Assembly (NCBI GenBank): GCA_963821725.1 | Contig: CAWGFA010000014.1 | Span: 48,797 to 112,796, forward strand | DNA from: an uncultured Acidimicrobiia bacterium | Lineage (GTDB): Bacteria; Actinomycetota; Acidimicrobiia; Acidimicrobiales; JACDCH01 | Length of the DNA stretch: 64,000 bases | Reading direction: 5' to 3' | Shown: positions 7,853-25,546 of the stretch, piece after piece | Position numbering within the stretch: the first letter of the stretch is position 1 | Layout of the letters: the number at the start of each line of letters is the position of its first letter | Program-made: the position numbers and the translations under genes | The notes under the pieces: generated by a model | The model's database searches: none | Told to the model about the DNA's origin: nothing | What the model saw: only the letters and a program-made list of their open reading frames with translations

Positions 7853-9259
7853 TCAGGGCGGCGTCGGCGTGTTGGCGACGCCTGCGAAGTACGCGGACGC
7901 CGTGCACGGCCCGTTGTTGACTGTGGTCTGGCACGCGACCGCGATCGTCAGGTTCTGTCCGGAGGCGGGATCGACGATGATCGGCGTCACGAAGTGGTAG
8001 TCGAGATCGCGGAAGTTGTTGAGCCCTTCCTCGAACAAGATGTCAGTGCCGCGCAGGACTCTGAACGTGCCTGTGTCGCCGGCTGAGTTCTCGAACACGA
8101 CGTCGGTGATCAGCAGTTGCTTGCCTGCGGGAACCGGGGCCGGGGGCGAGGAGACGAACGTCGTGTTGTTCGGCACCGGCAGCGCGGTAGCCGGCGACGT
8201 CAGCCGGAAGGCGCCCGGTGTGCCCTGGCCGAGCACGCCGCCCGAACCAACCGCTCCTGGAATCGTCGTCGTCGTCGTTGCAGTGCCGCCACCACCACCG
8301 CGCCTGCCTGGGTCGCGCTCTCGGCTGCCTGGCTGGCACTGCCGGCTGCCTTGGTCGCGGCGCTGTCGGCGGCCTGCTGCGCGGTCTTGGCTTGGTTCGC
8401 GGCTTCGGCCGCGGCCGCGACCTGCGGCTTCACCGCGTCCTTCGCCGTGGATTCGATCACGGACTTGAACACGGTCTGCCACAGGATGAAGAGCACGAGC
8501 GCGGCGGCGAGCAGCGCGAGCAGCAAGCTTCAGCAACCACTTCGGGAGCAGCTGCTCCTGCACGACGACGCCGTCGGCGTACACCGGCGGGCCGGTTCGG
8601 TCCTCGTTCAGGACAGCGACCTGGAAGGGCAACGTCTTCGGATCGCCACGCCAGAACGTTCGCCTCGGGCGCACGGTGACGTTCGCGAACGTTGCCTTGC
8701 CCGGTGTGAGGTCCATGACCGTCGGATCGACGGTCACCTTCAGGTTGTCCTCTTCCTGCTCGATGAAGAACTGCACCGATCGCGACGTGTTGCCCGCGTT
8801 GTCGACGGCGAGCTCGGTCGTGCCTCGCCGCTTGAGCCGGATCGTTCTCGGCACCAGCTCGGCGTTCACCTCGTCGAACGGCAGGACCCGGATCGTTCCC
8901 TCGACGACCGCGGAGCCCGCGGTGTCTTCGCTCGACACGATGCGGACGGCGAACGGGATGTCACCGGCCGGCACCGACGACGACCGAGGTGGAGCGAAGG
9001 TGATCGTCACCTCTTCTTCGCCGCCTGGGAAGAGGTTCACCTCTGCGGGCTCAGCGGTCGCCCACTCTCCGACGTCACCGACCACGTCGATCATGAACTG
9101 ATCGACCACCTGGCCGGAATTGCGGATCCGATAACTCCAGGAGACGGACTCGCCGGGCTCGACTTCGTCTGCCTGGGACACAACTGCTGTCGCCACGCCC
9201 ATTAGTTCGGGAACGTAAAACTCGTCCCTCCGGATGTCCAGCACTCCCGGTCCGCCCAA
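7853..9259 (-). CDS. bitopic membrane protein with N-terminal beta-sandwich-like repeats; central segment apparently out of frame
   Basis: The 468-codon ORF is open, but its middle reads Arg-rich nonsense. The overlapping frame (track ORF 8200..8526) reads a clean TM helix LLALLAAALVLFILW plus an A/Q-rich linker. This implies two compensating frame changes (~8525, ~8290). N-terminal part has EPGESVSWSYRIRNSG and TELAVDNAGNTSRSVQFF. Start uncertain (TTG 9259 or ATG 9202). Confidence 0.55.
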   Translation of the reverse strand: MGGPGVLDIRRDEFYVPELMGVATAVVSQADEVEPGESVSWSYRIRNSGQVVDQFMIDVVGDVGEWATAEPAEVNLFPGGEEEVTITFAPPRSSSVPAGDIPFAVRIVSSEDTAGSAVVEGTIRVLPFDEVNAELVPRTIRLKRRGTTELAVDNAGNTSRSVQFFIEQEEDNLKVTVDPTVMDLTPGKATFANVTVRPRRTFWRGDPKTLPFQVAVLNEDRTGPPVYADGVVVQEQLLPKWLLKLAARAARRRARALHPVADRVQVRDRIHGEGRGEAAGRGRGRSREPSQDRAAGRRQRRDQGSRQCQPGSRERDPGRRGGGGGTATTTTTIPGAVGSGGVLGQGTPGAFRLTSPATALPVPNNTTFVSSPPAPVPAGKQLLITDVVFENSAGDTGTFRVLRGTDILFEEGLNNFRDLDYHFVTPIIVDPASGQNLTIAVACQTTVNNGPCTASAYFAGVANTPTPP

Positions 9260-9372
9260 AAGTGCCGACTGTCACGAACTTCCCTCTAGGGCAAAGACGT
9301 CCGATGTGACATATTGACCGCCTACGGATCGTCAGTCCCTGACGACCGACGGGTGGCAATTAGGAGAGCAGG

Positions 9373-12300
9373 GTGGACCTCTCCCTCAAACGGCTTTGGA
9401 AAACGGCGCGCGCCGCGCTCGTGATCGCACTTCTCGCCGCCGTTCCAATTGTGATCGCGACGCGCTCGGGAGCGTTCCCTCCCAACGGGCAAGGCGACCT
9501 TCAGCGCGTCTCGCTCAACACCGCGAACGGCGAGCTGGCGACCGGTGCAACACAGCCCGCCATCTCGGGCAACGGCCGCTACGTCGCGTTCACGACGCCG
9601 GAGAACAGCGCCGCGAGCAACGACACGAACGGCTCGAACGACGTGTACGTGCGGGACACGGTCGCCGGCACGACGACGCTTGTCTCCAAGTTCCAGAACA
9701 CGACCAACGGCGTGGCCGGCGACGACAGCTCACAGGCCGCGTTGTCCAACGACGGTCGGTGGGTGGCCTTCACGTCGAAGAGCACGCAGTGGGGTGGCAC
9801 GCCGTTCACGACCTCGGGCGTCTTCGTCGTCGACCGGGGAGCCCCTGCGCTCGACGGCAGCTTCCCGGCCGCGCCGGGCGCGCCCGTCCTGGTCAGCATC
9901 GCTCCGGGCACGACCACCTCGGTCGCGGGCGCAGCGGACTCACCGAGCATCTCGGCCGACGGAAGCCAGATCGCCTTCCACTTCGTGACCGGCGGTAGCA
10001 ACCGCACCGTCGTCCGTGACCGTGATCGCAACCACAACGGACTCGTCGCGGAGAACGCTCTCGACGAGGCGTCCATCGACGTCAGCAACGGTGCACCGGA
10101 CCGCAACGCACCGAAGGTCTCCGCTGACGGCAGGCACGTGGTGTTCGTCGCCACGGATCCGGCTGTGAGCGGTGGTGCACCCCGAGCAGTCGTGTACGAC
10201 CGCTCCGTCGACGGGAGGCCTGATCTCGATCAACTCGGCAACACCCGGTTCGCGGTCGCGACCACACCGGCCTTCAGCCTGACGGACGGCGACGGCAATC
10301 CCCGCCCTGACCCCTGCTGGGCACGACATCGGCGACGCCGAGCATCTCGGGCGACGGCAGCGTCGTGGTCTACGCGTACTCGCATCCGATGAAGACCCCG
10401 ACCCCGCCGGGCCGGCTGCCCAACGCGACGCTCGAGATCATCGCCGTGCACCGTGACGCGAACGGCGCCCCGATCAACCCGATCGTCGCCAGTGCCGACA
10501 CCACCAAACCGCTCGACGACAGGCGCCGGCGATCAGGACAGCGTCCGCCCGGTCGTCTCGGCGGACGGCCACTACGTGGACTTCCCGAGCTCGGCGACCA
10601 ACTTCACCTTCGCCGACGACCAAGGCGCGAGCTGCGGGACGGCCGTGACGGTGAAGCGGTGCGAGATCTATGCCGTCGACATCACCGCCGCCGAGCCCGA
10701 TCGCCGCGCCGGAGCTCGCGCTCGGAACAGTTCCTCAGCGGGAACAAGCGGAGCTTCGAGGTCGCGATCTCGGCGACCGGACAGTTCTCGGCGCTCACGT
10801 CCGACGCCACCGACTTCGTTGCTTCGAACGGCGACACGAACAACTCGCCCGACGTCTTCGTGAAGGAGTGGGAGGCGTCGCTGACGCGCCTCGTCGAGCC
10901 CGTCGCCGCTCCCGGACACGCCGGTCGGCACAACGTCGGGACCATTCACGGTGAGCGTCGACACGGAGAGCTTCGGCCCCTGGAGCGCGTCGCAAGTCAG
11001 CCTCGCCGGCGCCAATCCGGGCGACTTCACGGTCAGTCCGCAGAGCTGCACCCAACAGGTGTTCCACATCGGTCAGCCGTGCTTGGTGGCGATCACGTTC
11101 CATCCGACGGGTACCGGGCTGCGCAGCGCGGAGTTGGTGGTGACGCATGCGGGTCACGCCGTCCTGCAGGATTCGTTGCTGGTGCAGGGCGCGTCGGGGC
11201 TGCCGGCCAGCCCAGCTGTGACCGAGCGTGTGAGCCTCGGACCTCTCGGCGCCGCTGGAGTCGGGCCGACCGGCCAGATCAACGCCAACGACTCGGTGCC
11301 GGGATCGATCTCGTCCAACGGCCGGTACGTCACGTTCGTCACCACGGCGAAGCTCGACCCGGGTGACAACAACGGCAAGGAGGACGTCTACGTCCGCGAC
11401 CACCTGCGAGGAACGACCACGCTCGTGTCCGCCACCCCTGGCGGCAGCGCACCCACGGGCCCCGCGACCTTCTCGTCCTCGATCTCCGGCGACGGCCGCT
11501 ACATCGCGCTCAGCACCGTCGCGAAGCTGACGACCGATCCCGCCGACAACCACACGGATCGTCCGGCCGTCTACGTGCTCGACCGTGGACCGGCCGACGC
11601 GAACGGCGACTTCACCGGTGCGCCGGTGATGCACGTCGTGGGCCAGTCCGCGGCTGCCGCAGAGTGCGATCCCGACATCTCGGGTGACGGCTCGCAGGTG
11701 ACGTACTGGACCTCGACTCCGCTCCAGCCGCTACCAGCCGGCCAAGTCATCCCCTGCAGCGAGTCCAACATCACCCAGGCGGTCGTCGTCGACGAGGACG
11801 GCAACGGCAACGGCATACCGTACGAGCCGGGCGATGCGCTGGAGACCGAGCTGACGGTGCCGAACGTCGACTTCAATCAGTCGCGTCTGCCACGGATCTC
11901 GGCGGACGGTCTCCACGTCGTCTTCGAAGCCAACGAACTGTTCGCCTTTCCCGAGGATTCAACCGCGACCGAAGCATGGGTGTACGACCGTCGGATCACC
12001 GGGTCCGGCGCCAAGGATGCACCAGGCAACACTCGGTACGTGCTGGCGACAACCGGCGCGTTCACGCCGCTCGTGGCCGGGGACAACCGGTTGAGTCCGC
12101 TCCAGAACACGCTCACATCCGATCCGGTCGTGAGCGGCGACGGCTCGGTGATCGCGTACGACTTCCGCTACAGCAATTCGTTCGAACCACCGCCCGGCAC
12201 GCCGCTGGTGCTCAACAGCCCGCTCCCCGCGGACGACGACCAGATCCTGTTCGTCCGTCGCGACGCCGCGGGCAACATCGTCTCGAGCGACGATCGCATC

Positions 12301-13742
12301 CGAGGCTGGGCAGCAACCCGCCGGCCATCGGCAGCAACAACTCCCGCAATCCCGACGTCAGCGACGACGGGCGCTACGTCGCGTTCGACACGACCGCCAG
12401 GAACCTCCTGCCGAACGAGCCCGGCGACTGCGACGGGCCTGTGCACGGTCGCGGTCGTCGTCGACATCGACGCGCCAGGCCACGCCGGCGCGCCACAGTT
12501 GCTCGGACCGACTGCCGATCCAGGCAATGCGACCGGGATGCCCAGGGACGGCGAGTTCGGCACGGCGTTGTCGGGCGATGGACGGTTCGCCGTCTTCGGC
12601 TCGTTCGGCAGCGACCTGCTTCCGCCCGGCGCCGACACGAACAACCACGACGATGTCTTCCTGCACGAGCTGCGCCCGGTGGATCCGCCCATCCCGGCGA
12701 ACGTCGACTTCGGCGACGTCCCCGTCGGCAACGCGTCGCCGGCGTCGTTGGTGCAGTTCACGACCAACGACTTCGGACCTGCGCCGGTCCTCGGCCTTTC
12801 CCTCGTCGGCGCCAACCCGGGCGACTTCAACATCTTGGGTACCACCAACTGCTCGCCACCGTTGCCCGGACGCGCCGGCGGCCAACGTCGCGGCCGTGCC
12901 GAACTACGCGATCCTCCATCTCGACACGCCGTGCGTCGTCTCGGTGAACTTCACGCCGACGGCCTTCGGCACTCGCACCGCGACACTCCGGCTCGTCACC
13001 GGTACTCCCTTCCCGGCCAGCAACCCCGAAGGCCTCGCGATCCCGGCGGGGACACCGCCTTCTCGGATCACGACGGACGTGTCACTCGTGGGCGGACCGG
13101 GCGCGCCTGCGTTCCAGGTCGCTCCGGTGCCGCTCGACTTCGGTCTGCAGACGCTCGGACAGCTCACACCCGACCGGCCGCTGACCGTCACGAACGTGGG
13201 CGGCAATCCCTTCGTGATCTCCGGCGTGACACTGACCGGCGCCAACCCCGGTGACTTCACGATCACGTCGGATCTGTGCAGCGGCGTCGTGGTGAACCCG
13301 CTCGCCACCTGCGTGGTGCGGGTCGCGTTCCACTCGACCGGCGCCGGGCGACCGGTCGGCGTTCGTGCAGTTCGTCGACACGGCGGGAGGTTCGCCACAC
13401 CTCGCGCCGCTCATGGGTCGAACGCCGACGCTCGCCGTGAATCCCGGTGTCGCCGCGCCAGGGCGAACGGTTGACGTCATCGGCACGAGCTGGCTGCCGG
13501 GACAAGCGGTTGCATTGACGACGGTCGACACGCGCGACCCGACGCACGTGTTCTCCGAGTCACGCATCGCCATCGCTGACGGCACGGGCAACTTCCGGGT
13601 CGTCATGGTGATGTTCCCGAAGACGACCCCTGGATCGAGGTTCGTCATCGGCACTGGTCTGGCCCCGACGGCTACGGCGCGGGCATCGCTGTTGGTTGCG
13701 TTCGCGACGAGCCAGGCCCCGAACTTCCTCACGAGGGGCTGA
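9373..13742 (+). pseudogene. giant secreted/anchored protein: PD40 (TolB-like) beta-propeller repeats + choice-of-anchor-D/ASH-like modules
   Basis: Stitched from track ORFs 9373..10392, 10365..11366, 10453..10863, 10951..13254, 11976..12947, 12527..13474 and 13365..13742 (>=8 frame changes). N-terminal anchor ALVIALLAAVPIVIA. Repeated S.DGR.VAF.S...D.N...DV(Y/F)V.D motifs. Three GANPGDF(T/N)...C...V.F.P modules. RBS AGGAGAGC before GTG 9373. Confidence 0.65.
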
Positions 13743-13810
13743 CCGGTGGAGCGAAGAGGTCAGGACAACACATGAGCAGGACAAGGGCGAATGAAATCGA
13801 GGTACGCCGG

Positions 13811-14438
13811 ATGAGGCATCGCATTCCCACGTACGTGTACGCAACCGACCAGCTCTCCGAGGCCGGCATCGTGTCGAGGTTGCGTCCGCAGCCCGAAGTC
13901 GATCTCGTCGCCGAAGACGAGATCGACCGGGCCGTCGTCGGCGTCGTCGTCGCCGACTTCGGTCGACGCGGACGTCATACGCGTCATCCGAAGCATCCAA
14001 CACCTCGGTTGCTCCCGAGTCGCGATCGTCGTCCCCGACCCCGACGACACCGTGATCCTCACGTTGCTCGAGGCGGGCGTGTGCGGAATCCTCCGCCGCG
14101 CCGAAGCATCGGCCACGTCGCTGGTCACGCTCGTCGAGTCGGCGGCCCGCGGCGAGGGCTCGCTGCCGCCCGACATGCTCGGCCGGCTGTTGCATCAGGT
14201 CGGCCAACTGCAACGTCAGGTCCTCGCGCCGCGCGGGCTGACGATGACCGGACTCACCGAGCGCGAGATCGACGTGCTCCGCCTCGTGGCCGAAGGGTTC
14301 GACACCGAGGAGATCTCCAAGAAGCTCGCCTACTCGCAACGCACGATCAAGACCGTGATCCACGACGTCACGACGCGCCTCTGCCTGCGCAACCGCACGC
14401 ACGCGGTGGCCTGGGCCTTGCGCGAAGGCCTGATCTAA
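13811..14438 (+). pseudogene. LuxR/GerE-family transcriptional regulator with receiver-like N-terminal half, one frame change
   Basis: HTH LTEREIDVLRLVAEGFDTEEISKKLAYSQRTIKTVIHDV in track ORF 14052..14438. N-terminal half MRHRIPTYVYATDQLSEAGIV...VVVAD is in the 13772 frame. Switch at ~13965. Confidence 0.7.
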
Positions 14439-14447
14439 CCCGTCCTC

Positions 14448-14475
14448 CGTGTGCAACGCCCGGGCGTTGACCACC
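14448..14475. repeat. dispersed palindromic repeat, family A (single copy)
   Basis: CGTGTGCAACGCCCGGGCGTTGACCACC lies between convergent gene ends (14438 + / 14508 -). It resembles the 35-bp unit at 35989..36023. Confidence 0.45.
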
Positions 14476-14507
14476 GCTGGGGCGGTGAGCGTCCGGGCGG
14501 CGCTCCG

Positions 14508-16207
14508 CTACTTCTCCGCGAAGAGCTCGATCTCGGAGATCGCCACCGGCGGAGGCGGGGTCCCGATCGCCTGGTAGGTCGACACGATGTGGATCTCGAC
14601 CTGCGTGATGCCGTGACCGTTGCGAGATGCCGACCTTCTGTGGATCGGGCGCGTCCTTCAGGTCGATGTCCGACGTCTTCCCGGTGTTGAACACGAGGTG
14701 GAGCTTCTGCGCTCGACTGAACTGGGCGAACGAGTCGCGAGCGCCGTTCTGGATGATGGCCTTGTCGAGATCGACGGTTTGCCCACCGAAGGTCAGCACG
14801 AGGACGGGTTCGCCGTTGCCCGCAGGCGCCACCCAGAACGTGTTGCCCGCGTGATCGATGGCGTTCGTCGCCGGGTTCTCCGGTGTCTGCGTCGTCGCCA
14901 ACGCGCGCCGCCGGGTTCACGGGGACGAACTGTTGCGTCGTGTAGTCGTTCCACTTGTCCTTGACCGGCTGGACGAACGTGTCTTGGGCCCAGTTGCGGA
15001 GCGGCGGGAGCAACGCGAGCGCGGCCACGATGACGATCGCCGCGGTGGTGACGACCTTGCGCAGGGCGAGCATCGTCTCCTGGCCGAACTTCTTCTTGGC
15101 CTTGACGCCGGCCTTGCCCGGACGCTCTCCGACCTCGAGCTGCTTCACCTTCTTCTGTGGCCACAGCCGCTTCCACCACGGCCGCTTGACGACTTCAGCG
15201 CTGACGAGCGACTCGCCGCAACGACTGCAGAACTTCCGGGCCGGCGGGTTGCCTTCCCCGCACTCGCCGCAGATGAGGTCGCCCGGCTGCAGCCGGCGCG
15301 TCGGCTTGGTCTTCTGGATCGTCCGCGTCGCCTTGCGCGGCGCGGCCGGCTGCATGGCGTCGGGCTGCGCCGGCTCCGGCTTCGTGGGCGCGGTCGCGGC
15401 CTCGTCGAACGTCGGCTCGGGAGCCGACGACACGTTTCCGGCGACTCGGGCAGCGCCGGCGGCGGCTTCGCGACCGGCACCGCGAGGGCGGCCGACCATC
15501 GGAGCCTCCGCCGGCAGCGCAGGACCCGGTGGACCGGTGGCCCGGGCGGCACCGGCGGACCCGGAGGACCGGGCGGGCCACCCGTCGGCGGACCGGGCGG
15601 ACCAGGAGGACCGCCCCGGCGGCCATCGGCGGACCCGGAGGCCCAGGCGGACCAGCGACGGGCCGACCCGGCGGACCCGGAGGACCACCCACCGGCGGCC
15701 TCGGCGGACCCGGCGGCCCAGGCGGGCCACCGATCCCGGAGGACCCGGGGGACCCGGAGGACCACCACCCGGCGGCACCGGGCGGACCCGGAGGCCCGGG
15801 CGGGCCACCCACGGCGGACCTGGAGGACCTGGAGGTCCCGGTGGACCCGGCGGGCCCACCCCCGGCGGACCCGGAGGCCCCGGCGGACCCATCCCGGAGG
15901 ACCCGGCGGCCCCGGCGGTCCCGGCGGTCCCGGTGGCCCCGGTGGTCCCGGCGGCCGCCCGGCGGCCCTCCGGGACCGCCCGCTCCGGCGCGGCCGGACG
16001 ATCGCCGACATCGAGGTACGCCAGGCTGGTGATGCGTTGCAGCAGCGACTTCTTCTTCGGCTCCTCTGCCTCGAGCTGTTCCGCGGTCGGCACATCGACC
16101 TTCGGCGGCACGATCTTCTCGCCGGTGAACTCGAGGAACGAACCACACGTTCCGCAGAACGTGTCGGTGTCGCCGTTGTGGAACCCGCACTTGCGGCACA
16201 CGATCAT
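14508..16207 (-). pseudogene. double Zn-ribbon / (Gly-Pro-Pro)n / single-TM / C-terminal discoidin-like domain protein, coupled to the baseplate operon
   Basis: Stitched from track ORFs 14435..16237 and 14368..14901 plus a third frame for the C-terminus (NGHGITQVEIHIVSTYQAIGTPPPPVAISEIELFAEK*, TAG at 14508). Zn ribbons: CRKCGFHNGDTDTFCGTCG and CGECGEGNPPARKFCSRCG. TM helix VVTTAAIVIVAALALLPPL. ATG 16207 overlaps the TGA of track ORF 16204..16656, one of the frames stitched into the upstream gpI-like gene (ATGA). Confidence 0.6.
15520..15965 (-). repeat. coding Gly-Pro-Pro (collagen-like) tandem triplet repeat
   Basis: The minus strand reads long runs of [10 protein letters not shown]. All three minus-strand frames (track ORFs 14435..16237, 15145..16146, 15195..16199) alternate between GPP runs and Arg-rich text, so the true frame changes several times. 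Confidence 0.6.
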
Positions 16208-16745
16208 CGCCGCAACGACCTCCACCCGATGAACCACGTGGGCCGGCTTCGCCTGTATGACGATGCGGTCCAGTGCAGCTTCGTTGATCGCGTCGGGGTC
16301 GTCGACCTCGACGCGTACCGCGACACGCGGCGCGGGCTCGCCCGGGAAGTCGCCGCCCGGGTCTGCGATGCGGCGACCGCGCCGTTGTCGACCACGGTCA
16401 CCATCACCGCCGGTGAGAAGGCCGACGTGACGCGTCGAGTCCAGCGATCGTGCCTCGATGCCGGAACAGCTCGACGGCGTTCGCGATCGCGTCGCGCCGG
16501 CGCTCGACCGGCCAGCTCTCGTCGAGGAGGATGCCGACCCAGCCTCCGAGCCAGTCGAGGAAGTCGCTCGGCGCCATGGCCGGATCGATGTAGTACTCGA
16601 GGCAATCGAGCGTCGCCATCGCCGGCGCGATCACGTCGTCGAGCCCGCGGCACCACTCCATCGTGAAGAGGTCCTCTTGGTAGATCGCGGGCAGCATCTC
16701 GCCGATCGACAACGGCATCTCGACGCCGGGCATCACACCGCGCAT
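16204..16745 (-). pseudogene. phage tail protein I-like baseplate wedge protein (TIGR02242-type)
   Basis: Track ORF 16404..16745: LPAIYQEDLFTMEWCRGLDDVIAPAMATLDCLEYYIDPAMAPSDFLDWLGGWVGILLDESWPVERRRDAIANAVELFRHRGTIAGL. The C-terminal part (VEVDDPDAINEAALDRIVIQAKPAHVVHRVEVV) is in other frames. ATG 16745 overlaps the upstream stop (TGATG). The 3' end is uncertain. Confidence 0.6.
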
Positions 16746-18714
16746 CAGCGTTGCTCCACCTGGATCTGGTGGTCGAACGAGAAGACGAGGCTCGCGGGCG
16801 TCAACTCGATCCGCTGCGTGGCCTCGCCGCGCTCACGCGTCACCGGGTTCGCGCCGTACACGCGCACGTCGTTGACGATGTCGACGCCTCGCACTTGCTG
16901 GAGGACACCGAAGATGTCACCGGCCTGCACGTCGCGGCCCCACACCCAGCCTTCGCCCGCGGCACCGCCGACGAGCGGGTTGAGGTAGCGGAACAAGGCT
17001 CGTCAGGCAGTCCTCCTCGACCCGGCTCACACTGGCACGCGGCGCGGCGACGACGCGAGCGACCACGGTGACTCCCTGGTACATCGGCGGTTCGACCAGC
17101 ACCCTGGTTCCGATCAGGCGAGCCTCGTCGAGGCGATCGGAGACCTTCCGCAACGTCTCTTCGGACAGCAGGAGCTGGTCGAACTCGATCCCGACGGGAT
17201 CGGACGCACTGGCGGGAACCAGCAAGACCTTGACCGAGCCCGCATCGGGACCTTCGCCCGCGGTCAAGCACTTCACACGCGCCACTTCCGGCGCGGCCTG
17301 CTTCGTCAACAGCTCGTAGTCCTCCGCGGTCACCGCGCGGCTCCGCGTCCGCAACACGATCGGCCCGCGGCCCTTCGCCTCCTCGAGCGTCTCTCCGTCG
17401 ACGCCACCTTGGGCTGGCTCGCGGTTCTCGACCCGCGACACGTAGGGAATCGCGGTCCGCAAGACGCGTGATCGTTCGGCGAGCCACGTTGCCTCCGGAG
17501 CCGCCGCCGACGGTGTACATCGCCATGCGCATGTCGATGCCTTTCGGAGGCACCCAGCCGTACTGGTCGTACGTGCCGTCGAGCCTGACGCACGGCGGGC
17601 CCGAGCGTGATCTCACCGTGTACGGGATCGAACGTGTAGTGACGGTCGTCGGGTCCGCTGTCCGCGAACTCGGAGACCTCGGTCCACTCCTCCCAGCCGT
17701 CATCGGAGCTGCTCTCGAGCACGACGGGGCCGCCGCCGGCAAGGACCGGAGCGCGAAGCGTCCGGAAGTGCTGACCGGGCGTGCCGTCGGACGCGCCGAG
17801 CGCTTCGTTGCGAACGAGCTCCGCGTGCACGGCGTCGGTCGTTCCGCCGACCGTCGACGCGCTCAGACCGTGAATGAGCGGTGACGAGGTGTACGACGGC
17901 TGCCCGGACTCTGCTTCGACGACCCGTGCCCGCAGGTAGCCCCCTCGTTCCTCGCGGAACACCGACACGACGTGTGTCCGCGGCACGTGCAGGACGATCT
18001 GTCCGTCGCGGTTCAAGCCACCGGTGTCGTCGTGGTCGACCTCACACGCGTCCCACGCCGTGCCGTTCCATGCCTCCCAGACCAGCGGCGGGTTGTCGGG
18101 ATCCACGCCGACACCGTCGATGTGACACGTCACCTGCAGCGCGACCGCGCAACTCGGCACCGCTTCGCTCAAGGCGAGGTACAGGCAGTCGCCGACCTCG
18201 GGCGTCGTTTGGAACGCGGCGAACTGCGACGCGAGCTTGACCTGATCGGTGCGATCGTCCCACTCGTCGTCACTCGTCGGGTTGGTCGCGTCCGCGCCCG
18301 CCGGTCGCGACTGCGTCGAGCTTGCACGGGATGATCCGCAGCTCCTCCACGGTGGCGAACACGATGGCGTCGTCGATGTCGGTCCGCACCGTCGACACCT
18401 CGGTGCCCGGCTGGATCGGGATGATGCTCACCGCCGGCGTGGCGAGCCAGAACGTGACGGGCACACGTGCCGGCGTCGGCGGCAGCAGCCGAACGCCGAT
18501 CAGCTCGAGGAACTTGATGTAGAGCCGGTCGGGCACGCGGTTCAAGCCGGTACAGCAGCTGATCGGTCATGAACGCGAAGGTCTCGATCAACGTCACGCC
18601 CGGATCGGAGACGTTGTGGTCCGTCCACTCGGGGCAACGGCGCTGCACGAGTCGCTTCGCGTCGTCGACGAGGTCCTGGAACCGGCGATCGTCGAGGTTC
18701 GGTGCAGGAAGCAT
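16745..18714 (-). pseudogene. Baseplate_J-like baseplate assembly protein (Afp11/gp6-like, TIGR02243-type)
   Basis: MLPAPNLDDRRFQDLVDDAKRLVQRRCPEWTDHNVSDPGVTLIETFAFMTDQLLYRL (18169..18897 frame), then pieces in 18270..18545, 17330..18172, 16917..17462 (AVTAEDYELLTKQAAPEVARVKC) and 16745..16996. At least 5 frame changes. Confidence 0.75.
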
Positions 18715-19120
18715 CAGTAGTCGGTCCCGTCTTCGGGGATCGTGTAGAAGGGGAAGACCAGGTTGCGGCGGTCGTTCGTGTCGAGCGGCTGGTACTCGAT
18801 GTCGATCAGCAGCTTGCTGCCGTCGTCCCCGTCCCGTGATCACGCGGACGTTCTTGACCTCGACTCGCGGCTCCCATCGCAGGATGGACGTTCGCACCTC
18901 GAGCGAGAGTCCGGCGATGGAGTCGTGTCCGAGCCTCGGAACACCCAGTCGCGTACGCGGGAGCCGAACTCGGGCGCATCGGTCGCTCGCCCGGATAGGT
19001 CGCGAGGATCAGACGTATCGCCTCTTCGAGCTCCTGCTCGCGACGCACGAGCGCGATGCCGCCACGGCTGTTCGTCCGCAGTGGAAACGCCCAACCGGCG
19101 CCGATGTAGTCGTCGTGCAC
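18714..19120 (-). pseudogene. GPW/gp25-like baseplate wedge protein
   Basis: MHDDYIGAGWAFPLRTNSRGGIALVRREQELEEAIRLILATYPGERPMRP / EFGSRVRDWVF / EVRTSILRWEPRVEVKNVRVITG / DDGSKLLIDIEYQPLDTNDRRNLVFPFYTIPEDGTDY*, spread over at least 3 frames. One switch sits at the C4 run 18827-18830. Confidence 0.75.
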
Positions 19121-19130
19121 GCTCGCTCCG

Positions 19131-21091
19131 TCAGTTGAGCCCGAGAGGGTTGCCCTTGATGGTGGCGGGCCCGGTGCTCTCCACGCTCACCATCGCTCCC
19201 TTGAGCTGAAGTTGTTGTTGCGCCTCGATCGAGATGGTTGGCGCCTTCAGCGATGATCTGTCCGGCGCCCGGCGTCGTCGATTCGATCGTGATCGCACCC
19301 ATGTCGTCCATCGAGAGCGTGCAGCCACCGGCCGCGCCGTTCACCTGGATCTCGATCTTCTTGCCGACCGGCTGCTTCATGTCGAGGTTGATCTTGAGCT
19401 TGCCGTCCTTGTCCTCGATCCTCATGCCGGTCTTCTGCTTCGGAATGGCGTCGGTCGGATCGGGAGTCGGATCCTCGGTGAACACCAACTTGTGGCCGTC
19501 ACGCGAGTACGAAGCCGCGCTCCGCGACCTTGCCCATGGTGACGCCGGGGACCGGAACCTTCTTCGAGTCCTTCGGATTCGACAGCCCGCCGACGACGTA
19601 CGGCCGGCGGATGTCGCCGAACTCGAACGCGACGAGCACCTCGTCGTCGGGCTTCGGAGATGAGCATCCACCCGCCCTTCTTGCCCATCCCGACTTGCAT
19701 GACGCGACACCAGTCGGACACGTAGTTGTCGGCCAACCACGGGAACGCGAGGCGAACTCGTGCCTTCGCTGTTCGGGTCGTTGTTGTCGACGACGATCGC
19801 CGGCACCACGCCCTCGATGCGGGGCGGCGACGCGGCGCCGGCGTTGCTCTGTCCCATCGAAGCCAGACCCGAGCAAGCGAGCGCTCCTGCCGGCCGCTCA
19901 CGATGAATTGGGTGAGGTACGAAGACTCGAACGGGTCGTCCTCGTCGAAGACGTGCCGGGCGTTGGTGACGACCCACTTGCCCGAGAAGTAGCCGGGCGT
20001 GTTCTCGATCTTGACCGTCGATGCCCGCCTGCACCAACGGATTGCCCTCGCACGTGCCTTCTGCTTCCGCGAAGGTCGAGCCGACGTGCTCGGCCACGCT
20101 CTTCGCCATCCCGTCGGCTTCGCCCGTGCTGCCGAGTGGTCGATCGACGATCGCGTACACGTCACCGTTCACCGACGTCGGGAGCGCTTCTTTGCACGCC
20201 CCAGTCGATGCTCGCGCCGGTCCCTGGGATCAGCACCGGAATCGGGATGTCGGGGATTCGCGGTGGCAACATGAACTTGTCGTAGAGATCCGACGCGCCG
20301 TCGACGTCGTCGAGGTCGACTTGCTTCGTGTCCGCTCGACTCCCGGCTGACGATCGCTTCCTTGTTGCTGGAGTCCCACGCACGGACCATCACCTTCGGC
20401 ACCTGACCGCAGCCGGTGACCCGCGGCCGGAAGCGGAGCAGGTTGTCGCCGGCGGTGAGCTCGGCGGACCGCCCGGGAAGCGGGAAGATGCCGAGCGATC
20501 ATCGGCGTGTCGCTCGTGGTCTTCGGCTTGCGGAAGACGAACGAGCCTTGGACGACACCGAAGTCGAACCCGTTCTCGGCGGCGCGGCACTTCAGGAACT
20601 CCCAGTCGGTCTGGTTGAACTGCGCGACCGCGTCGTGCACGCCGGTGGTCGAGTCGATCTGCGGTGGCGCGGTGACCAAGCCGTACTTCAGGGCCATCTG
20701 CTGGGCGATGTCGGAGTCCTTCATGTTGCGGTAGACGTAGGTACGACGCACACGTTGCATGCGGTGCGCCTTCTCGTAGCCGCGGACGTCGTGTAGGCAG
20801 ACGTTGCGGTCGATGTCGGCTTCGATCGCGGTGACCTCGCCCTCGATGAGCGCCGGCGCGTCAGCTCGAGTCGTCGGCGCCGCCCCAGATCTTCACCGAC
20901 GTACCGATGTCGATCATGTTGTTGGCGAGCACACCACCTTCGTCGAGGAAGGTGATCTCGAACATGTCCGGAAGGTGCACGTGCGTGTCGACGACGACGC
21001 GACGCATCGTTGGGCTCGACCATCGGGTGCAACGGTCGACCTCCGCCGGGGCACCCTACGGCCCGACCTTGACCTGCGCACGGACCGCCAT
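19131..21091 (-). pseudogene. gpD/VgrG-like spike protein
   Basis: VVDTHVHLPDMFEITFLDE...IEGEVTAIEADIDRN...YRNMKDSDIAQQMALKYGLV (20230..20760), VPAIVVDNNDPNSEG / RVRLAFPWLADNYVSDWCRVMQ / DDEVLVAFEFGDIRRPYVVGGL, and C-terminal beta-helix-like ISIEAQQQLQLKGAMVSVESTGPATIKGNPLGLN* (19131..19328). Many frame changes. Confidence 0.75.
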
Positions 21092-21092
21092 G

Positions 21093-21899
21093 TCAGAACA
21101 CCTCGTCGGCCGACGGCAACATGACCGTCCGGCCGGGTCGCACGCGGAAGCGGATCGTCGATGCCGTTCGCGTCCGCGATCGTCGCGCCACGCTCGTGGA
21201 CGCTCGTACGTCGTCGGTGGCGATCGAGTGCAGGCTCTCGCCCGGACGCGGACCATACGCGAACGCCGTCCGGGAACACCTCCCGACGTCGGGTTGGTCA
21301 GCATGCGTGAGCAGGAAGTTCGGCGCCTCGTCGAACGTGCACCGTGACCTCCGCCCGGATCGGGTTGCCGTGCACTGTCGAAGCGCTTGTAGATCGATCG
21401 ACACGCTCGTTGAGGTATCCCTGCATCAGGAAACCACGAGCGGGGTCGCCCCACTGCAGCGTCAGCAGTGGTCGGACGCGCCGTCGATCTGGATCTTGAA
21501 ACCGAGTGCGGAAGCAGCGGCACCGAGGGCTGCGCCCGAGCGATCCGACCGCCTCCCGGTTGCGTCCACTGGAGAAGGAGATCGCAACGCGCTTTGATGC
21601 CGCCGCCGACCACCGACGCCTGTCTCGACGGCATCACCGACAGCCGCCGCCGCTGTCGTCGGACAGCAAGGGCGGTGAACGTGATCTTGGTCGGGAGCGT
21701 GCCGCGGTACATGTTCGTGTAGCCGGCTGGTGTACCAGTCGGCGAAGGCACGCCCGGTCTTGCCGCCCGTCTTCGTCTGCGGCCGTGTGGTTGTTGGTGC
21801 CCTTTCTGACTTGGAAGCTCTCGGGTTCTGGTCGAACGTCACTTCGTCGACCGGCATCATCATGTTGAAGATCTTGATGTTTCCTGCAGTGTCGAACAT
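21093..21899 (-). pseudogene. CIS tube-initiator-like protein with C-terminal LysM (Afp7-like)
   Basis: N-terminus MFDTAGNIKIFNMMMPVDEVTFDQNPE... (21462..21899 plus the 21634..22023 frame). C-terminus PGESLHSIA...IADANGIDDPL/RVRPGRTVMLPSADEVF* is LysM-like, split over frames 21093..21404 and 20914..21279. At least 5 frame changes. Confidence 0.6.
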
Positions 21900-21902
21900 C
21901 GT

Positions 21903-22353
21903 CTATTCCTCGAGAAATCCTTGATGCGCCATCTCGAGCGTCTCGAGTCGCGATCGCATGTGACGTCGGCGTCGAAACTCGGAGCCTTTCCACGACGTGG
22001 GATACACACCTCGCAGCTTCCACGTCATCACCGGTTGCCGGTGCGAATCGTGCAACGTGATCGCCGCCGTCCCACCGGCGCCCGCTGTCCTGCCATCTTC
22101 GACAACCACTTCAGCGTCTTCGGGCGCATCGTCCGTGGTGATGGCCCGCGTCAGCGTGATGTTCGAGTACAGGACTCGATTCAGGCAGGACCGGTACGTA
22201 GTCGTTGTGGCCGAGCGGCACGTAGTCGTGCAGCTTGAACTGGACCGAGAGGCCGTCGCACTTCGCCCAGCCGCCGAGATGGAAGCCGTCGACGATCACG
22301 TCGAACCGGTGTCGAGATGCCGAACCGCGTGTCGGCGGAGATGCGGTCGGCAT
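21903..22353 (-). pseudogene. gp19-type tail tube paralogue B (Afp5-like)
   Basis: MPTASPPTRGSASRHRFDVIVDGFHLGGWAKCDGLSVQFKLHDYVPLGHNDYV (22111..22353), then other frames, then TAAITLHDSHRQPVMTWKLRGVYPTSWKGSEF...LEMAHQGFLEE* (21903..22109). Confidence 0.65.
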
Positions 22354-22784
22354 CTATCTTGTCCGCCGGAAGGAAGCCCTCGTGGGCCAGTTCGAGTGTC
22401 TCCATCGCGACGTGCCCGCTCTGGCTGTCGAACTGCGGCCCGCTCCACGCGACCGGTAGCACACCGGTGCAGGTTCCACTTGCACTGCGTGAGAGGCGTC
22501 TCGCTTGTTGTGCCAGAACGGATAGCCCTTGATCGACGCGGTCACCTTCTTGGAGTTGAACGGCGGTCTGACTCGCAGCCAGCTCCATGATCGCGCTTGG
22601 TGTGCTTCAGCGTGGTCATGCGCCCGAGCCTCACGTTCTGGTAGGTCGTGTACGCAGGCTCGATCCACCGGTAGTTGTCTCCGTCTCCTGCGCGGTACTC
22701 CGCGAGTTCGAACTTCACCGCGAGCCCGTCGACCTTCGACCAGTAGCCGAGATCGTGACCGTCGATCGTGACCTCGAAGATCAT
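22354..22784 (-). pseudogene. gp19-type tail tube paralogue A
   Basis: MIFEVTIDGHDLGYWSKVDGLAVKFELAEYRAGDGDNYRWIEPAYTTYQNVRLGR (22542..22784), then KKVTASIKGYPFWHNK (22354..22668 frame) and LPVAWSGPQFDSQSGHVAMETLELAHEGF (22181..22588 frame). TAG 22354-22356 abuts the next ATG. An N-terminal extension to ~22931 is possible. Confidence 0.6.
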
Positions 22785-22940
22785 CGTGGTGATCTGCGGC
22801 TCGGTGTCCGGCTGGCCGTTGGCGCGCCGATGTGCGGCGGTCCAGACCCCGAGGGCGTCGGCACCGTCCGCACCGTCACGTTCATCCCGGACGGGTAGAG
22901 CGACTTGTCGAGGTACGACTGGAAGGACACGGCGAAGCTC

Positions 22941-25546
22941 CTAGCGAAAGTCAGTGAGGAAGCCGGATCGCTCACGGTCGATGATGCAGATTGCCGGCGC
23001 AACCGGGTCACCATCCGGTCGTAGAGCAGCGATCGCGAGGTCTTCGACATCGTGGTCGTCGAGGTGGGCGAGGATGTCGGTTGGATCAGTCCCGGGGACT
23101 TCGCTCCGTTCACGCGAGCCCGCTCGCCGTGCAGCGAGCGTCGTGGTGCCCGTTGCCGCCGCCGCGGCGCCCGCCGCGGCGCCGACAGCCGTCGTGTGCG
23201 ACCGGTGGCGCCCCATCAGCGAGCCGCGGCGGGCCCCGCCACCGGTCGCGGTCGTTGTCGCGCTGCCGCGGCCGCCGGCGCCATCGCCGGCGTCGCGGGA
23301 GTCTGTGGCTGTAGCGGCCGCCGGCTACGTCGGCATCGTGATGCTGGCCGAAATGGCTGTCATGGCTGTAGCGGCGTCGTCGTGGCCACACCGGCGCGAG
23401 CAGTCCGAGCGCTCCTCCCCAGCCGGTCGTCCTGTCCGTCGCCGGATCCGGCAGCCGGATGTCGTCGACGTCCTGCGCCAGCTGCGCTGTCCGTGCCCCC
23501 TGGCGACGACGACGGCGTCCCCGGGTCGTCACGACCCGTCGGCGTCGTGGGCGTGACCGGTCGCGGCAGGCGTCGTGCGGTGTGGACGGCGTGGTCGCGG
23601 GTGTCCCCGCTGGGGCCTGCCCTGCAGTGGTGGTGCTCTGGCCCGTGTCGCCTGCGTCGGCACGGCATGTCCTCGAACTGCTCCGTCTGCCGCTCACGTT
23701 CCGCTGCGACGGCGATCAACGCCTGCGTGCGGTCGTAACGATCGCGGACTGCCCATCGTCATGCCGAGCGCCGTGCCGAGGCCGCCCGACACCAGGACGA
23801 TCTCGGCTCTTCGTCCTCACCGCCCTGGCTCGATGGACGTATTGCAGGTGACGATCGAACTCGTGACTGTCCGTGGCCGCGGTCGGCGTGGCCCCCTCGC
23901 GAACGCTCGTACGCCAACGACGACCGAGCGTCCTCGGCAGCAGGACCGCCTGCCGGACTGGAGTCTGCGCCGCCAGTCGTGCACGAACTTGAGATGACGA
24001 GTCGTTCTCGCCGCGATCACTGGCCGGCGCCGGCTCCACCGCGGCCACACGCGATAGGCGCTCGTGCCCCGTTGGTCGTGCTGGAGCGCGACGCGAAACG
24101 CTTCGTTCTGCCGGACCCGTCGGACGGCGCTCGCCATTCGTCGTCATGCGCCTTGCGGAGGCCGGAACGACGAGCGCGCCCTCTGCATCCCACTGCGCCG
24201 CGCCGCGTGCGACCAGTTGGTCGGTGACCGCACGCAGGAAGCCGCCGCTGTCGATCCTCGGATCGCCGGGCGTGGCGCGCAGGGTGCGGATCGGCGCGAC
24301 CCGCGGCTCCGGGTCGTCGCCCCGCACGAACCGCTCGACCGCGTGCGCTTCGGCCTCGAGTCGCCGGCCCTCCTGCGCTCGACGGCGCGCGGCAGGGTGC
24401 GAGCCGTAGACCCGGTGCTGCACGACGTGCGTGAGCTCGTGCGCGAGCACGGCGCGCGTCTCGGGTGCGTCGAGCGGGCCCGCCTCCATGGGCAAGAACA
24501 CCTCGCCTTCACGTGTGAAGGCTCGGGCTCCGATGCGCGACGCGATCCGGAGAGCCTCTCGTCACGACGGACGGTGACCGCGTCCAGGATCGCGACCGAG
24601 CGACGCGTGTCGACGTCAGCGCGCACCCCGGCGGAACGTCGGCGTCGTCGGTAGTGGGCGACGGCCCGCCGCGCCGGCTCGGGAGGGGCGAGCCTCGTCG
24701 GGCGCGTCGCGTGCTCGGCGGTTGTTCGGCGGCGCGATCTCCGGAACCGACGCCTCGACCTCGATCGTCTCGGGTTCGACGCTTCGGGATCGCCGACGTC
24801 GAACGGTCCGGAGGGCAAGGGCGCACCGAGACCGAGCCGTCGCGACTCCGCCAGCGACCGTCTCCGAGCGCGGCCGGACGCTCGAGGTCTCGCGTCCGCG
24901 CACCTTGCGTCCGCTCGTCCCCGCGCCAGGTCGGGACGAAGCTCGGCCAGCTCGCGCCCCGTGCGCTCGGCCAGCAGCGACGCTGAAGATCGGCGGCGGT
25001 AGCTCCTCGGGGATCTCGTCGTCGACAGAGGTCGGGCTCGCGAACACGTCCGGCGTCGACTCTCGGCTCGGCCGCGACCAGGTCGCCTGCGTAGGTCGTG
25101 AGGTCGGACGATCTGGCGCGACCGCTCGCGACGACCGGACGGCGCGCGGCCTCGACGTCCGCGTACAGCTCCGCGGTCACCGGCGTCGACATCGCCCGGA
25201 TCCTGCGGTGACGACAGGTACGCAGGAGCCGGCATGCGCACGGGCAAGACCCGTGCGACATGCCCGCGGGGCGCGTCCGACGGAAACCTCGCGCAGCGAC
25301 CGTCGGCGAGGAGCGGCTGTGTCCCCGCGAGCTGCGAGATGAACGACGCGCTCGAGCCGACGATCGGCGCGGCGGCGCCGGTCGCCGACGGCGCTCAACG
25401 GCTCGAGCGCTCTGCCAGCCCCCGGCATGCGCGACGAGCCGGCGCGGACCTGCGAGATCGTCGATCGTGATCGGTCGCGCCTGCCGGCGCGGACGACGGC
25501 GCTCCCGCGTCGTGCGATCGGCGACGCCCGCGAACGGCCAAGGCAT
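22941..25546 (-). pseudogene. DUF4157 (zincin-like HExxH) domain protein occupying the tape-measure slot; may be 1 or 2 genes
   Basis: Stitched from many track ORFs (24509..25546, 24144..25247, 24616..25047, 23716..24501, 23360..23719, 23110..23697, 22941..23216). DUF4157 core ...AFTRGEVFLPMEAGPLDAPETRAVLAHELTHVVQHRVYG (motif ~24427-24441). Hydrophobic IVLVSGGLGTALGMTMG plus a coiled-coil-like segment. C-terminus ...LLYDRMVTRLRRQ/LIIDRERSGFLTDFR*. Confidence 0.5.

Follow-up and report, generated by a model that had tools for sequence, protein, structure and literature searches.

The window analyzed here, a 64,000-nucleotide stretch of contig CAWGFA010000014.1, carries baseplate genes of a contractile injection system (CIS), followed on the minus strand by a gene whose translation falls into pieces in three reading frames. 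This raises the question of whether the pieces belong to one genuine protein and, if so, what such a protein contributes to the injection system. The gene (14508-16207, stop codon included) was delimited by three-frame translation and by frameshift-aware alignment to the proteins of two related loci, L001 and L003, and encodes a product of about 559 amino acids once its frames are corrected. In our judgement this product very probably is a member of the family of CisA, the accessory single-pass membrane protein encoded at the end of actinobacterial CIS clusters, with a corresponding function by homology.

A product stitched from three frames

The cisA-like gene starts with the ATG of the peptide MIVCRKCGF at 16207 and ends with the stop codon behind ELFAEK at 14508. 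A three-frame translation of positions 16300-14400 contained all peptides reported in an initial annotation of the locus, spread over the three frames, and a frameshift-aware protein-to-DNA alignment called for 12 frame corrections against the L001 protein, of which it spanned residues 1-574, and for 11 against the L003 protein. The correction sites are located near 15984, 15955, 15890, 15810, 15776, 15741, 15625, 15536, 15493, 15434, 14902-14905 and 14622. About eight of them fall inside a Pro/Gly repeat (about 15536-15984), two lie on either side of the motif AALAVPV (15493 and 15434), and two are found within the C-terminal domain (about 14902-14905, and 14622). An N-terminal zinc ribbon shares one common frame with the segment that runs from a second ribbon to just beyond a transmembrane (TM) helix and with about 90 preceding residues; the C-terminal domain is spread over two further frames, and the G-P-P tracts change frame at intervals of 30-100 bp. 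All disruptions are single-base insertions or deletions (indels), and the corrected frame shows neither premature stop codons nor large deletions. An open reading frame (ORF) of 600 amino acids in frame 0 (14435-16237) was rejected as the product, as it departs from the G-P-P frame and lacks both the AALAVPV motif and the entire C-terminal domain, and the L001 gene is a single clean frame.

The product is genuine and was not created by the stitching. As evidenced by the metagenomic contig L001 (protein P0012, 75% identical), the same protein exists as one unbroken ORF of 574 amino acids (L001:2022-3746, ATG to stop codon), in which a Zn ribbon and the Pro/Gly repeat are followed by the LVxPV motif, a second Zn ribbon, a basic stretch, the TM helix and the C-terminal beta-sandwich. 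The succession of two ribbons, a membrane span and a discoidin-like domain proposed in the initial annotation is thereby borne out; the AALAVPV motif, which sits in a separate frame piece, had been overlooked. In addition, differences between the corrected window gene and its relatives are concentrated in third codon positions, with counts for the first, second and third position of 39/30/88 against L003 and 51/34/114 against L001.

Further relatives were collected by scanning 185,579 species genomes with a degenerate pattern, and the best 80 of the 264 that were retrieved were examined. The whole protein is present as a single ORF of 377-832 amino acids in 35 of the 49 genome loci with Tail_P2_I upstream. 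The closest of the genome loci, L003, is a 3.3-Mb contig from an uncultured Acidimicrobiia metagenome-assembled genome (MAG), with 89% identity at the protein and 88.5% at the DNA level. Note that this genome (MFD04850.bin.2.5) reads L-I-V-C-R-K, with a CTG codon, in place of M-I-V-C-R-K at the start position (9240-9300), and that its first ribbon is interrupted by a frameshift, so that either this MAG also contains an assembly error or the start lies elsewhere.

Public gene calls cut off the N-terminal part of the family. Close metagenomic relatives with up to 93% identity in BLASTP (P0001 reaches 96% in the 79-sequence alignment A2) are annotated at only 327-339 amino acids, because the gene caller began at an internal Met after the repeat and the starts therefore lie just past it. 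The source gene call of L001 likewise has an internal Met start and places a 179-amino-acid antisense ORF over the repeat (L001:2197-2736, minus strand), and the gene tables of three further relatives (P0008, P0015 and P0006) contain the same gap or an antisense call. As the JGI gene tables of relatives list comparable antisense ORFs of 159-179 amino acids over the repeat where the sense frame is demonstrably open, we dismissed the plus-strand ORFs over the window repeat (14858-16666 and 14955-16232) as shadow ORFs of high-GC DNA. Moreover, 25 of the 80 contigs begin less than 800 bp upstream of the second ribbon, which suggests that the spacer interrupts short-read assemblies. As callers start after the repeat and contigs begin near the second ribbon, the N-terminal ribbon is systematically removed from the databases.

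Domain order and homology to CisA

The first ribbon (CRKCG...FCGTCG, 16139-16198, on the minus strand like all parts of the gene) scores 22.7 bits against PF13240 as a window fragment, and its motif M-I-V-C-x-x-C-G...F-C-G-x-C-G is conserved across 39 loci. The second ribbon (CGECGEGNPPARKFCSRCG, 15215-15271) matches PF13240 and PF12773 and aligns with CisA in hhalign; across 79 sequences, its Cys, G, N, R and F positions do not vary. Taken as window fragments, both ribbons stay just under the cut-off of the two Pfam families at about 22-23 bits, and both exceed it, with 30.6 and 30.4 bits, in the uninterrupted protein of L001. The A-L-A-V-P-V motif (approximately 15466-15492), the window form of LVxPV, occupies a third frame between two indels. 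It is kept throughout the family and is found about 45 residues ahead of the second ribbon, within a region that is otherwise disordered. In many members a helix of the L-L-Q-R-I type is conserved behind the first ribbon. Together, LVxPV and the L-L-Q-R-I helix are candidate baseplate-docking motifs, of which, as far as we have seen, the CisA literature makes no mention.

Behind the second ribbon follows a basic juxtamembrane stretch with the motifs P-W-W-K/R-R-L and G-x-R-P (15056-15181), which aligns with residues 256-276 of CisA and whose WW pair is invariant in the family. It leads into the TM helix VVTTAAIVIVAALALLPPL (14999-15055), the top-scoring and sole strongly hydrophobic 19-residue segment (mean Kyte-Doolittle hydropathy 2.39), with no second candidate outside the helix region. 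An AlphaFold model of a 262-residue construct from the second ribbon to the C-terminus, computed with the 79-sequence alignment as input, reached a mean pLDDT (predicted local distance difference test) of 89.5 and shows a long helix through the hydrophobic segment (residues 73-96 of the construct, pLDDT about 81-95) and a beta-sandwich with pLDDT values of 91-98. Nine Lys or Arg residues are found in the 30 residues preceding the TM helix and three after it, a charge bias that predicts an N-in/C-out orientation and fits the single helix and the cytoplasmic ribbons of the initial annotation; experimental topology exists only for CisA of S. coelicolor.

The C-terminal part (14511-14929, with two frame corrections) is an NADase-type discoidin or CBM32-like beta-sandwich of predicted extracytoplasmic location, as supported by Pfam, NCBIfam, AlphaFold and Foldseek. 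Its 142 amino acids match PF25302 (NADase_transloc) with 32.4 bits at a cut-off of 27 and NF047619 (NADase_discoid) with 59.8 bits at a cut-off of 38, and for the intact L001 protein PF25302 gave 28.3 bits. The gathering threshold of PF00754, the F5/8 type C family, was missed with 19.8 versus 28.2 bits in a match that covers residues 12-74 only. Foldseek against the PDB retrieved CBM32 modules, a Bacteroides F5/8-type-C domain, APC10/Doc1 and muskelin, and the family profile, searched against PDB sequences, found the translocation domain of the NADase SPN (7ji1_A, E 7.6e-13) and the Zn ribbon of ArnA (5a8i_A). The domain belongs to the discoidin-like superfold via PF25302 and not through PF00754 proper, and at the level of the fold the match is clear, which upholds the galactose-binding-like assignment made earlier. 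Invariant positions of this outer domain are D...N.W and R..LH.

SPN, the NAD+ glycohydrolase of Streptococcus pyogenes, contains in its translocation domain (PDB 7JI1) a member of the same sequence family with the F5/8-type-C/CBM32 fold. The window protein, however, has neither an NADase catalytic domain nor the context of a secreted toxin, and its domain is predicted to be tethered to the membrane of the producer by the TM helix.

The domain order also resembles that of Streptomyces CisA. Sco4242 (CisA) was described as having a strong TM prediction, a Cys-rich and probably Zn-binding domain of about 50 residues before it and a C-terminal domain of about 150 residues of a sugar-binding type (PMC10020575). 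In the HHpred results of that study (Supplementary Data 7), Zn ribbons were located at residues 5-28 and 221-246, and residues 319-464 matched NADase_NGA (99.7%), 7JI1_A, APC10, muskelin and F5/8-C; the two PDB structures 7JI1_A and 5A8I_A are common to this table and to our own profile search. We took residues 1-310 of CisA from a supplementary AlphaFold file (eLife) and aligned them to the family. For CisA 221-294, hhalign returned a probability of 99.0% and an E-value of 2.5e-18, in a segment that comprises the second ribbon, the juxtamembrane stretch and the TM helix and in which the juxtamembrane motifs pair with A-P-W-W-R-R-L...G-D-R-P of CisA 256-276. By eye, the first ribbon (cysteines C6, C9, C20 and C23 in CisA), LLVPV, PWWRRL and GDRP are recognizable as common motifs, where residues 174-182 of CisA, S-L-L-V-P-V-A-D-P, are the counterpart of LVxPV. 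Because the same three published HHpred domains recur and the hhalign match is found in addition, the relation to CisA is, judged from sequence, one of homology and not of position alone. The parallel to a Streptomyces membrane protein drawn in the initial annotation therefore holds, but its restriction to gene position does not.

Both genes are placed after those for the baseplate proteins Cis11 and Cis12, and both proteins run from a Zn ribbon through Pro-rich disorder with LVPV, a second ribbon, PWWRRL and a single TM helix to an NADase-type discoidin domain of about 150 residues. They differ in length (468 amino acids in CisA, about 559 in the window protein) and in the spacer, which is Ala/Pro/Thr/Gly-rich disorder in CisA and a G-P-P-type repeat here. 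CisA has a ribbon of the form CPWCSTPN...YCARCA, whereas both window ribbons match the family consensus CGxCGEGN...FCSRCG. Finally, the host of CisA is Streptomyces, and that of the window protein is apparently a member of the class Acidimicrobiia.

The linker between the first ribbon and the LVxPV motif (15500-15990) had been called collagen-like, a description that we do not retain. Its DNA is a degenerate repeat with a 9-bp period, for which Tandem Repeats Finder (TRF) reports 49 copies at 15522-15954, and it encodes about 165 residues with 52% Pro and 33% Gly, in which runs of G-P-P are interrupted by one or two additional glycines. Gly-X-Y runs reach at most eight triplets in the intact copy of L001 and about ten in the stitched copy of the window, and in the L001 orthologue Pfam Collagen gave no match at E <= 0.001. 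A true collagen domain was rejected on these grounds, as its hallmark, a long uninterrupted repeat, is missing. The segment also changes among relatives: the L003 copy (89% identical) has GPPGMGPPP units with PPP triplets, members from Pseudonocardiales have PGLGGLPKP repeats with acidic runs or Pro/Ala-rich spacers, and the gap between the Tail_P2_I match and the second-ribbon region ranges from 251 to 1875 nt among loci. As the runs are short and both composition and length vary across members, the sequences identify the linker as a variable Pro/Gly low-complexity spacer and not as a conserved collagen domain. Runs of G-P-P triplets are what it shares with bacterial collagen-like proteins of the Scl1/Scl2 and BclA type; unlike in those, the runs are short, their register is broken by glycines, and the segment is replaced in close and distant relatives alike.

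Baseplate coupling, role and rival explanations

Upstream of the cisA-like gene lies the gene for a Tail_P2_I (gpI or Cis12-like) baseplate wedge protein (16214-16745, minus strand), which was located by tblastn with L001 and L002 proteins in two frames and whose label was taken from the Pfam assignments in the gene tables of relatives. It is preceded by Baseplate_J (Cis11-like; 16748-18717, minus strand), found by tblastn in at least five frame pieces. The initial annotation had noted an ATGA overlap with the gpI-like gene as a sign of translational coupling. The four bases are present at 16207-16204, and the last Tail_P2_I piece in the window shares the frame of the cisA-like ATG, which points to one further indel where the two genes meet. 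The L001 locus shows an exact overlap of the ATG with the stop codon of Tail_P2_I. Such a 4-nt overlap of start and stop codon (ATGA or GTGA) is found directly in 24 loci, and nine more that were scored -7 are interpreted as the same overlap plus one extra residue in the search pattern. This amounts to about 33 of the 39 loci with a locatable first ribbon and makes the overlap the usual arrangement of the family.

Association of the homologues with CIS loci was assessed at those 55 of the examined loci whose contigs extend 2.5 kb or more upstream of the gene. In 49 of these, the gene comes after tube, VgrG, gp25, Baseplate_J and Tail_P2_I, all in the same orientation, a slot that the Streptomyces member (P0114, L002) occupies as well; in two, it stands between Baseplate_J and Tail_P2_I. 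The remaining four, without baseplate genes upstream, at first counted as unlinked; they were found to lie right before Pvc16_N and the CIS AAA+ ATPase, as Pfam showed for L048 and tblastn for the other three. Since these four adjoin Pvc16_N and the ATPase, linkage to CIS genes is complete (55/55), in three fixed arrangements. The arrangement upstream of Pvc16_N (cis16) was seen in a Pseudonocardiaceae-type group (L047, L048, L049 and L074, also L041, L045 and L055), and the one between Baseplate_J and Tail_P2_I in a group with L078, L081 and L060.

CisA was shown to be a bitopic, membrane-associated protein with N-in/C-out topology, on which contraction in situ, stress-induced CIS-dependent cell death and normal timing of development depend, and its cytosolic part is predicted to contact Cis11 (PMC12237407). 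By analogy to S. coelicolor, the window protein would reside in the cytoplasmic membrane with its N-terminus inside and its C-terminus outside. Its cytoplasmic ribbons and flexible spacer would transiently capture the baseplate of a free-floating cytoplasmic CIS, probably via Cis11/Baseplate_J, and the membrane contact would permit sheath contraction, acting as a firing checkpoint. The outer glycan-binding-type domain may fix or oligomerise the anchor at the cell wall, or it may sense envelope stress.

Several points weigh against this assignment. The hhalign match covers the protein from the second ribbon to the TM helix only, and the likeness of the first ribbon and of LVxPV was judged by eye. 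For the C-terminal domain, homology to CisA is based on the published HHpred table and on matching templates, and the authors of the eLife study liken that domain to solute-binding domains, where Vladimirov et al. and our own searches point to discoidin/CBM32. The contact of CisA and Cis11 is in the literature an AlphaFold prediction only, and experiments on the function of CisA come from Streptomyces members only. Cytoplasmic CIS particles were seen in Streptomyces, and the presumed counterpart in the window is known from genes alone. Furthermore, the frameshifts could in principle be real.

A tentative and rather unlikely extension of the anchor model is that the two-ribbon cytoplasmic part is a length-tunable tether, in which the length of the spacer sets the distance between particle and membrane and hence whether and when firing occurs. 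The N-terminal ribbon, with the LLQRI helix or LVxPV, would grip the baseplate, the Pro/Gly spacer would form a semi-rigid polyproline-II or short collagen-like rod, and expansion or contraction of the repeat would tune the distance between lineages. Spacer length does vary widely among members, as seen in the gap of 251-1875 nt and in full-length proteins of 377-832 amino acids. If it were true, models of CisA that call the N-terminus 'unstructured' would overlook a functional ruler.

The initial annotation had left the choice between a membrane tether and a fibre substitute. We favour the membrane anchor, which together with membership in the CisA family we consider very probable, and think it unlikely that the protein replaces a tail fibre on an extracellular CIS (eCIS), where the ribbon would bind the baseplate and the C-terminal lectin the glycans of a target cell once the particle is released. 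The latter idea draws on the slot of the gene, which in eCIS and phage clusters is filled by fibres (PMC10020575), on the carbohydrate-binding-module fold of the C-terminal domain and on the observation that no other fibre-like gene was seen beside the baseplate genes. Sco4242 was termed a 'putative fiber', and its peptides were detected in purified particles by one laboratory (PMC10020575). However, the strongly hydrophobic TM helix and its positive-inside charge bias do not vary within the family, CisA fractionates with membranes, and Streptomyces CIS remain cytoplasmic (PMC12237407). CisA is also missing from the 3.4-3.5 Å cryo-EM reconstruction of the particle (baseplate and cap maps) and from particle mass spectrometry of the same laboratory (PMC12237407). 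Fibres of the Afp13/Pvc13 type share with the window protein the gene position right after the baseplate wedge genes and a distal carbohydrate-binding fold; unlike them, it carries Zn ribbons and a TM helix but no recognized fibre or knob domain, and its Streptomyces homologue is membrane-bound and was not seen on particles. Pfam and NCBIfam scans of the window and L001 proteins retrieved no fibre family. As to the anchor, a conceptual parallel is the cyanobacterial thylakoid-anchored CIS (tCIS), which is likewise intracellular and fastened to a membrane of the host by a component with a TM segment. In tCIS this anchor is an extension of baseplate components (PMC12237407), whereas in the window it is a separate accessory protein.

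It is still less probable that the frameshifts are genuine and that the cisA-like gene, possibly along with the entire cluster, is a pseudogene in decay that yields no protein. This possibility is raised by the 11-12 frame disruptions within 1.7 kb and by the neighbouring CIS genes, which are all split as well: Baseplate_J falls into at least five frame pieces in the window, Tail_P2_I, gp25 and the tube gene into two each, and VgrG into several. Yet the genes of the LuxR regulator and the large PD40 protein, non-CIS neighbours, are equally affected and split between frames, which fits a technical cause acting on the window as a whole. In the cisA-like gene only single-base indels occur, densest in the G/C-run-rich repeat, and the corrected frame has no premature stops and no large deletions. 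Amino-acid identity to intact relatives is 89-96%, substitutions show the third-position bias typical of selection, and the closest genome, a MAG with a 3.3-Mb contig, carries a frame break of its own. As the neighbours are split too, in-frame stops are missing, the third-position bias is present and L003 has its own break, the frameshifts most likely reflect indel errors in the consensus of a long-read metagenome assembly and not gene decay. Pervasive frameshifts were demonstrated for about 9.4-22.9 kb of the window, by tblastn of CIS genes and by the split LuxR and PD40 ORFs, and an ORF-based reading of the window calls for frameshift-tolerant methods. On both strands of 9373-22948, each gene that can be compared with an intact relative is split by single-base indels, at a rate of about one per 300-500 bp that is greater in G/C-run repeats and resembles an unpolished long-read consensus. 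That the protein is a general zinc-ribbon/discoidin membrane lectin, such as an envelope sensor, and adjoins the injection system by mere chance is suggested by generic database names ('zinc ribbon domain-containing protein', 'NADase-type glycan-binding domain-containing protein') and can practically be discounted, given that all 55 loci with sufficient flank among the best 80 of the 264 relatives adjoin CIS genes, that the start overlaps the Tail_P2_I stop in most members and that the family is homologous to CisA.

The preferred assignment to CisA widens the taxonomic range of the family. A published survey defined members as reciprocal best matches with SCO4242 or S. albus YP_007743954.1 (PMC12237407), and the matches in its reciprocal-BLAST table come from Streptomyces, Pseudonocardiales, Micrococcales and Catenulispora. 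In counts of terms in the table file, 'Acidimicrobiia' appears once, among the genomes searched (Ilumatobacter), from which we infer that the table holds no Acidimicrobiia match. We found CIS-linked members in many MAGs of Acidimicrobiia and Ilumatobacteraceae (for example L003, L004, L052, L059, L061, L068, L072 and L075). The new element is modest, in that CisA apparently extends to Acidimicrobiia; a literature search for an actinobacterial family combining 'NADase discoidin + zinc ribbon' returned nothing besides the CisA papers. Of further use are the positions invariant throughout the family, the finding of three cluster arrangements and the pitfalls in annotation. To date, CisA is the sole known factor that explains membrane contact and firing of cytoplasmic CIS of the Streptomyces type, and it has been studied in one genus. 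As the same protein, with the same motifs and baseplate coupling, occurs in Acidimicrobiia-like and many Pseudonocardiales genomes, its mechanism is likely general for this CIS lineage. Both ribbons, LVxPV, PWW(K/R)RL and the outer-domain positions D...N.W and R..LH are targets for mutagenesis. Because the repeat is where gene callers routinely truncate the protein, where short-read assemblies break and where consensus sequences from long reads acquire frameshifts, surveys reporting 'no CisA homologue' in CIS-positive genomes may under-count.

Neighbouring genes

Convergent with the cisA-like gene is a frameshifted gene for a GerE/LuxR-family regulator (13772-14438, plus strand; PF00196, 48.8 bits). 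In 41 of 82 loci, among them Streptomyces, a homologue with 45-61% identity is encoded no more than 10 kb from the cisA-like gene, and the regulator likewise stands beside the family in the gene tables of relatives, so that it may be dedicated to the CIS. Next to it, 9373-13742 (plus strand) encodes a protein with a PD40 beta-propeller and ASH/HYDIN Ig-like repeats, which is about 1450 amino acids long in relatives, and adjoining this gene is one for a protein of about 450-470 amino acids with a Cep192_D3/Ig-like domain (7856-9259, minus strand). This pair is kept beside the locus in close relatives, where a DUF4280 (PAAR-like) gene then follows; a DUF4280 gene was not located in the window. 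The PD40, Cep192_D3 and DUF4280 genes possibly encode cargo or accessory proteins of the CIS. In locus L074, about 3 kb downstream of the cisA-like gene and just past cis16 and the AAA ATPase, a gene (L074:13791-17369, plus strand) encodes a protein of 1193 amino acids with a WXG100-like segment and a C-terminal BMT5-like rRNA methyltransferase domain, which may be an effector.

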